Of a stretch of DNA of 64,000 nt, positions 44,905 to 46,083 are shown piece after piece; positions within the stretch are counted from its first letter, which is position 1; every line of letters starts with the position of its first letter. The DNA is taken from the NCBI GenBank assembly GCA_963797685.1, contig CAWCQK010000017.1:129652-193651 (forward strand), written 5' to 3'. A program made the position numbers and the translations under genes. This DNA comes from an uncultured Chloroflexia bacterium (lineage in GTDB: Bacteria; Chloroflexota; Limnocylindria; Limnocylindrales; CSP1-4). The notes under the pieces are model-generated. The model searched no databases. It was given only the letters and a program-made list of their open reading frames with translations, and had not been told where the DNA came from.

Positions 44905-46083
44905 TCAGCCCCGCGCCAGGCCGTCGAAGATGCGAGGACCCGGCACCCAGCTGACCGTGTCGACGCCGTCGAGCTGGAGACGCGCCAGGGCGACCTGCCA
45001 CGCTTCGCCTCCCGGTTCCCGCGCGTCGCCCGCGTCGCTCGTGCGAGCGTCGATGAGGTAGTCGGCGAGCCGCATCGAGACCCACGTCCGCCAGCTCGAG
45101 GACGTCGCATGGTGGCCCGACCCGGTGGGACCTCGCGGCGGATCGATCGCCCATGACAACAGCCCGTCGTCGGTCACGCCGGCCGTGAATGGCACGCCGT
45201 GAGGGCGACAGCCGACCGTCTGACCGCGGATGCGATCGGCGCCGCCATGGAGGTCGTCGAGGCTCGAGAAGTAGGCGACCATCTTGTCCGGTCGCGCGAC
45301 GTCGTCCACGGTCTTACCGATCTTGAAGCCCAGGACGCCCGGGGCGTCGGCCAGCGCCGAGGCGACCGCCCGGACCGCTTCCGGGAGCGTCTCGGTCGTC
45401 GGACTGACGTAGAGCTTGAACGGCGAGGACGAGCGCGTCCGCCTGGTCGGCGAGCGTCTCGGCTGCCAGCTTCGCCACGGCGAGTCGGGCGATGCCTGTT
45501 GCTGCTCGCTCCACTGCCGACTCAGGGTCGGCCCGGCTCCCCCGAGCGGGTCCCATGACGCGACCAGCCGGCGGAGTGCCGGGTTGACCGGTCGTCGGCC
45601 GTACATGTAGAGCCGGGTGGCGATGGTCTCGGAGGGGAGCGATCCCAGCGTGAGCAGGGCGTCGGCGTAGCGGATCGCCTCTTCGGACAGCGCGGCGGTC
45701 CGACCGCCACGACGAGCCTCGCCAGCCGGCGCGAGCGGCGCCCAGCCGGCGGCGCCGGAGCGGAACACCCCGTCCACCTCGACCTCGAGGATGCCGTCCA
45801 GGACGAGCCGCCCGAGCGTCGCTGTCAGGCGATCGCCCAACCCGCTGCGGAGATAGCCAGGGCACGGCCCGGGGACCATCAGGGTCAGGAACAGCAGGGC
45901 CGTATCCGTCGAGACGATGCGCGGCTCGAGCGGGCTCTCCGAGGTGGGCCGGAGGAGGCCATAGGGCGCGCGTTCCCGGTCGGCCTCCTCCGCCAGGGCC
46001 TGCCGCTCGACCACGCTGAGGCGATCGAGCGGCACGAGGTCGTACGCTGGATTGGCGCGCAGGATCGCCTCGCCGATCAGCAT
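44905..46083 (-). CDS. HopA1-like / LanKC-N-terminal-lyase-like protein (tentative family call)
   Basis: 392 aa from the ATG at 46083. The core FKLYVSP...GVLGFKIGKTVDDVARPDKMVAYFSS resembles the K-L-H/Y-V-S, F-K and D/G-K-x-V/T-x-Y pattern I associate with HopA1-family and class III lyase domains. The call is by motif memory only. Confidence 0.55.
   Translation of the reverse strand: MLIGEAILRANPAYDLVPLDRLSVVERQALAEEADRERAPYGLLRPTSESPLEPRIVSTDTALLFLTLMVPGPCPGYLRSGLGDRLTATLGRLVLDGILEVEVDGVFRSGAAGWAPLAPAGEARRGGRTAALSEEAIRYADALLTLGSLPSETIATRLYMYGRRPVNPALRRLVASWDPLGGAGPTLSRQWSEQQQASPDSPWRSWQPRRSPTRRTRSSSPFKLYVSPTTETLPEAVRAVASALADAPGVLGFKIGKTVDDVARPDKMVAYFSSLDDLHGGADRIRGQTVGCRPHGVPFTAGVTDDGLLSWAIDPPRGPTGSGHHATSSSWRTWVSMRLADYLIDARTSDAGDAREPGGEAWQVALARLQLDGVDTVSWVPGPRIFDGLARG

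Follow-up and report, generated by a model that had tools for sequence, protein, structure and literature searches.

This study concerns a 392-residue protein, P0003, encoded on the minus strand of a 64,000-nucleotide stretch of DNA from an uncultured Chloroflexia bacterium (contig CAWCQK010000017.1, positions 129,652 to 193,651), referred to here as the window. P0003 most likely serves as the lyase in a lanthipeptide synthetase made of two proteins. The other subunit would be P0004, a 792-residue kinase-LanC protein encoded directly downstream, and the presumed substrate is P0005, the product of a 121-residue open reading frame (ORF) upstream. The synthetase is most likely of a split, class-IV-like type, with the lyase acting in trans. 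The lanthipeptide classes are defined by the distribution of dehydration and cyclisation over proteins, and new arrangements have opened new chemistry and new products. No description of a split lyase and kinase-LanC arrangement was found in the open-access literature searched. A trans-acting lyase bound to its kinase has precedent in LxmKY and CaoKY (PMC12141560, PMC9486802). A previous reading of the window, made from the sequence only, had proposed that a lyase supplied in trans completes a kinase, lyase and cyclase set. Gene linkage and fold agree with this proposal, and the catalysis is what we infer.

The AlphaFold2 model of P0003 was built from a 34-sequence alignment, with a predicted local distance difference test score (pLDDT) of 87.4 and a predicted template modelling score of 0.86. 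When this model was searched against the PDB with Foldseek, ranks 1 to 26 were all phospho-Ser/Thr lyases (E 6e-7 to 2e-2); the matches after rank 26 were unrelated (E > 0.06). The best matches were the HopA1 structures 4rsx (E 5.6e-7) and 4rsw (E 1.9e-6). Ranks 3-5, with E of about 2-3e-5, were taken by the LxmY chain in structures of the dehydratase LxmKY of lexapeptide (9dk1-3), and the remaining matches among the top 26 were the class IV enzyme CuvL, the class III enzymes SalKC, ThurKC, and PneKC, and OspF and SpvC. Judged from the model, P0003 has the shared fold of the phospho-Ser/Thr lyase superfamily. A common fold among these lyase groups was established earlier (PMC10604976, PMC9486802).

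Profile comparisons with hhalign extended this result to the sequence level. Two comparison sets were taken from Streptomyces genomes: 14 PF17914 (LanY-type) proteins and 17 LanL lyase domains. The LanL domains were trimmed by motif anchoring, which recovered 17, while phmmer-based trimming gave 10 of 30 loci. The P0003 family profile consisted of 148 representatives with pairwise identity of at most 50%. It matched the LanL lyase domains with a probability of 93.6% (P 2.1e-7, score 57, residues 189-321, 123 columns), and LanY with a probability of 52% (P 1.5e-4, score 40, residues 216-377). The direct comparison of LanY with LanL was not significant (P 0.17, score 17). The control runs, with reversed and column-shuffled profiles, gave scores of 10-20 and P of 0.075-0.8. 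LanY-type and LanL-type lyases are described in the literature as having no significant sequence similarity (PMC9486802). The P0003 family bridges the two groups, because it matches both while their own profiles do not match each other. These bridging matches bear on the relationship of the OspF-type and HopA1-type lyases.

The residue roles reported for SpvC, LanL, and CaoY (PMC9486802, PMC10604976) were mapped onto P0003 through the hhalign columns, and conservation was scored over the same 148 representatives. K223 stands at the position of SpvC K104 and CaoY R187, and its counterpart in LanL is the Lys of the WKLH (KxH) motif. K254 takes the position of SpvC Lys136, CaoY Lys219, and ThurKC K94, and was aligned in both comparisons. 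R264 is equivalent to CaoY R229 (SpvC R148), K267 to Lys in the GKFxTVY motif of LanL, and Y271 to SpvC Y158 and CaoY Y236. The spacing of K254, R264, and Y271 (10 and 7 residues) is identical to that of K219, R229, and Y236 in CaoY, where all three matter by mutagenesis (PMC9486802). R264, D266, S330, and R332 are invariant (148/148), K267 and Y271 are found in 145 of the 148, and Y159 in the helical linker is again invariant. Y225 stands at the column of the acid His (SpvC H106), so the KxH pattern of OspF/SpvC and of LanKC/LanL is absent from P0003. LanY likewise shows Tyr at this column ('LRVY') in the present alignment, and CaoY is active without the acid His (PMC9486802). Across the aligned sequences, the conservation pattern of the mapped residues appears to be that of an active enzyme.

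The gene is encoded in 284 of 185,579 species-representative genomes, and all locus counts given here refer to the 80 best loci. A full-length P0004 orthologue, first seen in three diverse contigs, adjoins the lyase gene in 80/80 loci, and the idea that homologues are never adjacent to kinase or LanC genes is rejected. In 79 loci it follows the lyase directly and on the strand of the lyase, and in one (L034) it is inverted. The lyase stop and the kinase-LanC start are -4 to +9 nt apart in 62 loci, and the tight coupling claimed in the sequence-only reading is thereby a kept feature of the family. The lyase is a separate ORF, in another frame or past a stop, in all 80 loci. Fusions of lyase and kinase-LanC were sought among the top 150 representatives listed, and none was present, all of these proteins being 294-474 residues long. 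Nine long stop-to-stop ORFs were also checked as possible fusions and rejected, since the long ORF lies in another frame. The other genes of the window are lineage-specific: the 472-residue Cys-rich protein is found in 6 loci, a SARP regulator in 8, and an ABC ATPase in 3. Because these flanking genes vary while three genes stay linked, the conserved unit consists of precursor, lyase, and kinase-cyclase.

P0004 contains no lyase domain. It scores best against the NCBIfam LanL model, yet with 180 bits against a cut-off of 650 bits, and the model is matched only from position 186 of 851, past its lyase domain. In the cyclase, C672, C716, C717, and H612 are conserved in 71-73 of 75 sequences. The zinc motif reads CCG where the canonical motif is CHG, and CCG is kept in 71 of 75 orthologues. 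A survey from 2024 has a small 'L-CCC' category, which combines a lyase-type dehydratase with a Cys-Cys-Cys cyclase (PMC11251773). This category, which is not described as split, may overlap with or correspond to the P0003/P0004 type.

Both subunits carry a related N-terminal domain: hhalign pairs residues 11-100 of the lyase family with residues 10-103 of the kinase-LanC family (probability 88%, P 3.1e-6, controls run). When modelled alone from 61 sequences, the domain of P0003 had a pLDDT of 87.4 and the order beta-beta-alpha-beta-beta-alpha-alpha-beta-beta-alpha. Its best, non-significant structural neighbours are mostly enzymes of peptides synthesised ribosomally and modified post-translationally (RiPPs) that bear a RiPP recognition element (RRE): ThcOx, TigE, LynD, TglHI, MibB, McbBCD, MccB, and TbtB. 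The model is suggestive of an RRE-like domain in residues 1-118. The domain also occurs on a third type of enzyme. In Ralstonia pickettii RAL3, chromosome 3 (L034), the gene after the lyase encodes this domain fused to a 2-oxoglutarate (2OG)-Fe(II) oxygenase (PF13640, E 2e-12). The fusion protein has 302 residues (7161-8066, plus strand), and the kinase-LanC is on the opposite strand (8062-10578, minus strand). Residues 1-128 of the fusion protein, which reach slightly past the shared domain, are 70% identical to the start of the kinase-LanC of the same cluster. Fourteen protein clusters keep this fusion, two of them under Cupriavidus names. Reuse of one domain on several modifying enzymes usually marks a substrate-recognition module. 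Since one domain sits on three modifying enzymes of one pathway, a docking role is suggested. The earlier proposal that the N-terminal 110 residues or so form a recognition domain is strengthened by the homology to the kinase-LanC N-terminus and by the reuse on the 2OG oxygenase. We found no report of RRE-type recognition in kinase-type lanthipeptide synthetases.

A search of the 80 loci with a hidden Markov model (HMM) for further proteins bearing the N-terminal domain found only the L034 case and one in L053. The latter is an ORF of about 470 residues (505-1914, plus strand), which contains a kinase-LanC-type N-terminal domain (E 3e-20) and matches P0004 in stretches between P0004 residues 35 and 789. 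This ORF may be a variant that lacks the kinase domain, or else a degraded copy.

Several results weigh against the assignment of P0003 as a lyase. P0003 has no match in Pfam or NCBIfam at E<=1, and it falls outside Pfam HopA1 (PF17914), whose gathering score is 22.7 bits. When 34 relatives were compared with Pfam, only sub-threshold touches of HopA1 and RamC_N were obtained, and PF17914 was touched by 2 of the 34, at E 0.14. The family thus reaches neither Pfam HopA1, RamC_N, nor any NCBIfam model. All PDB sequences were also searched with an HMM profile, and the matches were at chance level only (E >= 0.26). The Foldseek TM-scores are modest, 0.39 when normalised to the query and 0.55 to HopA1, because the alignment covers part of the protein only. 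The hhalign probability of 52% to LanY is low, and the P0003 family has Tyr where OspF and LanL have the acid His. For the N-terminal domain, none of the Foldseek matches to the PDB is significant (best E 0.26, TM 0.35-0.44). The HopA1 assignment of the sequence-only reading therefore holds as a fold and not as a Pfam family. A match to HopA1 or LanKC-N is absent at the Pfam and NCBIfam level (none at E<=1) and present at the level of fold and hhalign profile (controls P >= 0.075). By sequence profile, P0003 lies closer to the lyase domains of class IV LanL than to HopA1/LanY.

Some of these results would also be expected if P0003 were a non-catalytic adaptor, in which a degenerate lyase fold and a recognition domain present the precursor or stabilise the kinase-LanC. 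The products would then stay phosphorylated, or the elimination would take place elsewhere. The loss of the acid His to Tyr225, the missing Pfam-level match to any lyase family, and the recognition-like N-terminal domain all fit such a role. A structural role is also plausible from LxmK, whose solubility needs LxmY (PMC12141560). However, K223, K254, R264, D266, and R332 are invariant in 148/148 relatives, which is unexpected for a pseudo-enzyme. Moreover, P0004 has no lyase domain, and without P0003 there would be no dehydroamino acids and hence no substrates for LanC. An adaptor is considered improbable, and P0003 is better regarded as a lyase.

The nature of the substrate was considered from the upstream gene. 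The ORF directly upstream of the lyase has precursor features in 73/80 loci, as found by a pattern search. These features are an N-terminal M-x-F-x-x-K/R-x-L-x-V/I motif, a hypervariable middle rich in Cys, Ser, and Thr, and a conserved amphipathic C-terminal helix. The median length is 129 residues (maximum 246), with a median of 8 Cys (maximum 32) and 17 Ser plus Thr. In four of the seven loci without a match, the upstream DNA in the locus is shorter than 700 nt. These substrates are long for RiPPs and keep a C-terminal helix that is coiled-coil-like, which could instead point to a phospho-lyase acting on folded phosphoproteins. Such an enzyme might irreversibly switch off the neighbouring kinase or modify Cys-rich proteins, for example the 472-residue protein (40989-42407), in a regulatory or cross-linking function. 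Proteins are indeed the substrates of OspF, SpvC, and HopAI1, with which the fold was first defined (PMC9486802). Yet the lyase is linked to the small hypervariable Cys/Ser/Thr-rich ORF in 73/80 loci and to a LanC cyclase in 80/80, while the 472-residue protein occurs in 6/80 only, and a hypervariable core between conserved flanks is a hallmark of RiPP precursors. Action on folded phosphoproteins is accordingly given the same low likelihood as the adaptor. The HopA1 crystal structures, as best structural matches, might bring to mind a HopA1-type effector or toxin that is secreted and has no relation to its neighbours. Linkage effectively refutes this reading: the gene is always between precursor and kinase-LanC at coupling distance. 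Also against it, the gene is carried by soil Chloroflexota, Actinomycetota, Acidobacteriota, and others, a six-frame search of the own genome gave no Pfam HopA1 match at E<=1, and no secretion genes were among the genes scanned, at about 37.6-53.1 kb of the window.

A mechanism in three steps may be proposed for P0003 as the trans-acting lyase. P0004 would first phosphorylate Ser and Thr residues in the Cys-rich middle of P0005. P0003 would then beta-eliminate the phosphate to give dehydroalanine or dehydrobutyrine. In this step, K254 is predicted to be the base, K223 may stabilise the enolate, and Y225 may replace the acid His. R264, K267, and probably R332 would hold the phosphate, with assistance from Y271. 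Finally, the LanC domain of P0004 would add Cys thiols to form thioether rings. The related N-terminal domain on each subunit is probably where the precursor docks with its N-terminal strand motif, and perhaps also with its C-terminal helix. P0003 and P0004 probably form a heterodimer, in analogy to LanK-LanY.

The system was compared with the known kinase-type lanthipeptide enzymes. The LanY proteins of class V and thioamitide pathways (CaoY, LxmY, SprH3, TvaD; PF17914) are likewise stand-alone phospho-Ser/Thr lyases with a separate kinase. P0003 shares their fold, the order and spacing of the motifs [K/R]-x-Y, K, and R-x-D-x-x-V-x-Y, and Tyr instead of His. However, P0003 has no PF17914 match and contains Lys, not Arg, at the SpvC-104 position. 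Its partner is a Pkinase-LanC fusion (80/80), not an APH-type LanK (PF01636) with a LanX-type cyclase, and it has an additional N-terminal RRE-like domain in common with this partner. The sequence-only reading had suggested an alignment with LxmX, but the HopA1-type lyase of class V is LanY (LxmY, CaoY) (PMC9486802).

The class IV LanL enzymes (VenL, SgbL, CuvL) provide the best profile match. FKLYVSP in P0003 corresponds to WKLHVSA in LanL, FK to FK, and K-x-V-x-Y to GKFxTVY, and the partner keeps the Cys zinc ligands. In contrast to LanL, the lyase is a separate polypeptide, and the His of KxH is changed to Tyr. P0004 has the RRE-like domain in the place of the lyase domain, and a cyclase with CCG, not CHG. 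The precursors of the P0003 system also differ, as their N-terminal motif is very short and their C-terminal helix is conserved. The class III LanKC enzymes (ThurKC, SalKC, PneKC, CurKC) share the lyase fold (Foldseek ranks 8-26) and the logic of phosphorylation, elimination, and cyclisation, but LanKC is one polypeptide and its cyclase has no zinc ligands. LanKC is described as binding the leader via a leader recognition domain (LRD) embedded in the kinase, not via an RRE (PMC9828337). Class VI (LanKCb), which is streptococcal, consists of a single protein. The effectors OspF, SpvC, and HopAI1, and also HopA1, have the same fold, and P0003 contains the equivalents of Lys104, Lys136, Arg148, and Tyr158. 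Unlike these proteins, P0003 is encoded in a biosynthetic operon and is not an effector, lacks His106, and has about 190 extra N-terminal residues.

P0003 would work like LanY and like the LanL lyase domain, and it is a member of neither as defined. It falls outside these definitions because it fails PF17914, its partner is not APH-type, it is unfused, and Tyr replaces the acid His. We lean towards the view that P0003 and P0004 represent a further, undescribed class of lanthipeptide synthetase. This class would combine a trans lyase with a kinase-cyclase, an RRE-like docking domain on each subunit, and long precursors with an N-terminal strand motif and a C-terminal helix. Its lyase family would be the missing sequence link that unites the HopA1-type LanY and the OspF-type LanL/LanKC lyases.

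The lyase family is large. A word-indexed search found more than 600 clusters at 90% identity, with no precomputed Pfam domain in any of them, and 1,552 representatives at 50% identity reached E<=1e-3 in an exhaustive search. Every named database entry found for the lyase reads 'hypothetical protein'. Mining pipelines lump any kinase-LanC into class III/IV and drop ORFs longer than 120 residues (PMC7268733). The system has been hidden because the lyase is named a hypothetical protein, and because the pipelines misfile the kinase-LanC and drop precursors of more than 120 residues. The 80 loci cover Chloroflexota, Actinomycetota, Acidobacteriota, Nitrospirota, Pseudomonadota, Bacillota, Cyanobacteriota, Planctomycetota, and Gemmatimonadota. 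The carriers in Actinomycetota include Micromonospora, Kribbella, Conexibacter, Nocardia, Streptomyces, and Actinomadura; other named carriers are Nitrospira, Ralstonia, Ruegeria, and Bacillus. In the phylum of the window, the gene was found in 2 of 401 sampled genomes. It is patchy in this phylum and not a lineage trait, which fits an accessory, horizontally moving gene set. This rarity, together with the presence in at least eight phyla, suggests horizontal spread of the module. The system can be tested directly in cultured carriers, namely Micromonospora halophytica DSM 43171, Conexibacter stalactiti KCTC 39840, Kribbella pittospori NRRL B-24813, and Bacillus mycoides GOE10.

The order of the genes on the minus strand is P0005 (46471..46109), P0003, P0004 (44897..42522), and the 472-residue Cys-rich gene (42407..40989). 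The window has a G+C content of about 70%, and the G+C content at third codon positions (GC3) is 0.86-0.88 in all four genes. The coding part of P0003 extends from 46083 to 44908, with ATG at 46083 and TGA at 44907-44905, and a GAGG Shine-Dalgarno-like motif overlaps the stop codon. The sequence-only reading had this ORF correctly placed, ending 7 nt before the kinase-LanC ATG, and every motif that it quoted is present: FKLYVSP at residues 222-228, LGFKIGK at 251-257, RPDKMVAYF at 264-272, and, in the N-terminal domain, STDTALLFLTLMVPGPCPGYL at 57-77 and LGRLVLDGILEVEVDG at 90-105. The homologues align from Met1. A 507-residue reading from GTG 46428 was rejected; the extension is non-coding, because its GC3 is only 0.59 and it overlaps the real 121-residue gene (46471..46109). 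The features are collected in the table.

Table. Coordinates in the window of P0003, its parts, and the genes adjoining it.
Feature	Coordinates	Strand	Basis
P0003 gene, 392 residues, stop included	44905..46083	-	ORF, GC3 0.875, start via homologues, fold and profile evidence
N-terminal alpha/beta domain, residues 1-118, winged-helix/RRE-like, putative recognition	45730..46083	-	hhalign, AlphaFold2, Foldseek, oxygenase fusion
Helical linker, residues 119-190	45514..45729	-	DSSP helices 127-146, 151-159, 168-176, 184-190
Lyase core, residues 191-392, phospho-Ser/Thr beta-elimination fold	44908..45513	-	Foldseek; hhalign to LanL and LanY
K223-L224-Y225 codons	45409..45417	-	hhalign column mapping; K223 and Y225 invariant, 148/148
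K254 codon, predicted catalytic base	45322..45324	-	hhalign to LanL FK motif and LanY AK motif; 148/148
R264-P-D-K267-M-V-A-Y271 codons, predicted phosphate-binding Arg/Lys and Tyr158 equivalent	45271..45294	-	hhalign mapping
S330-W331-R332 codons, last long helix, candidate second phosphate ligand	45088..45096	-	Aligns with LanY SFGxHR; putative role
Intergenic spacer, 7 nt, GGCGGCC (P0003 stop to P0004 ATG at 44897)	44898..44904	-	Sequence; coupling junction
P0005, 121-residue Cys/Ser/Thr-rich protein, presumed substrate	46106..46471	-	GC3 0.86; equivalent ORF in 73/80 loci
P0004, RRE-like domain, Ser/Thr kinase, and LanC cyclase, 792 residues	42519..44897	-	Pfam Pkinase and LANC_like

Variation was also seen in the precursor genes and in the neighbours of the module. 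The 450-nt gap between lyase and kinase-LanC in Conexibacter stalactiti KCTC 39840 holds a second precursor-type gene (MSFSSKRLRVRLPCGEQ..., L024:7193-7624), and two tandem precursor genes precede the lyase in L019/L005. Extreme repeat cores occur in L051, L052, L054, L066, L088 (about 5220-5960); L044, L057, L059; and L035, L036, L038. These cores include CT(x)C/CTGCT arrays with up to 32 Cys in Acidoferrales and Bryobacterales, CTPSPP(D/N)x repeats in Thermoanaerobaculia, and GGGCYAS repeats in Terriglobales. The 472-residue Cys-ladder protein (40989-42407, minus strand) is placed outside the conserved core because it co-occurs with the module in 6/80 loci only, which are close Chloroflexota relatives and L061. 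Extra Ser/Thr-kinase-like ORFs of about 1,200-1,400 residues stand beside the module, on the same strand, in loci of Acidobacteriota and Thermoanaerobaculia (L046:2017-5571, L053:1257-5525 and 9455-13105, L056, L057, L059, L068, and L086).

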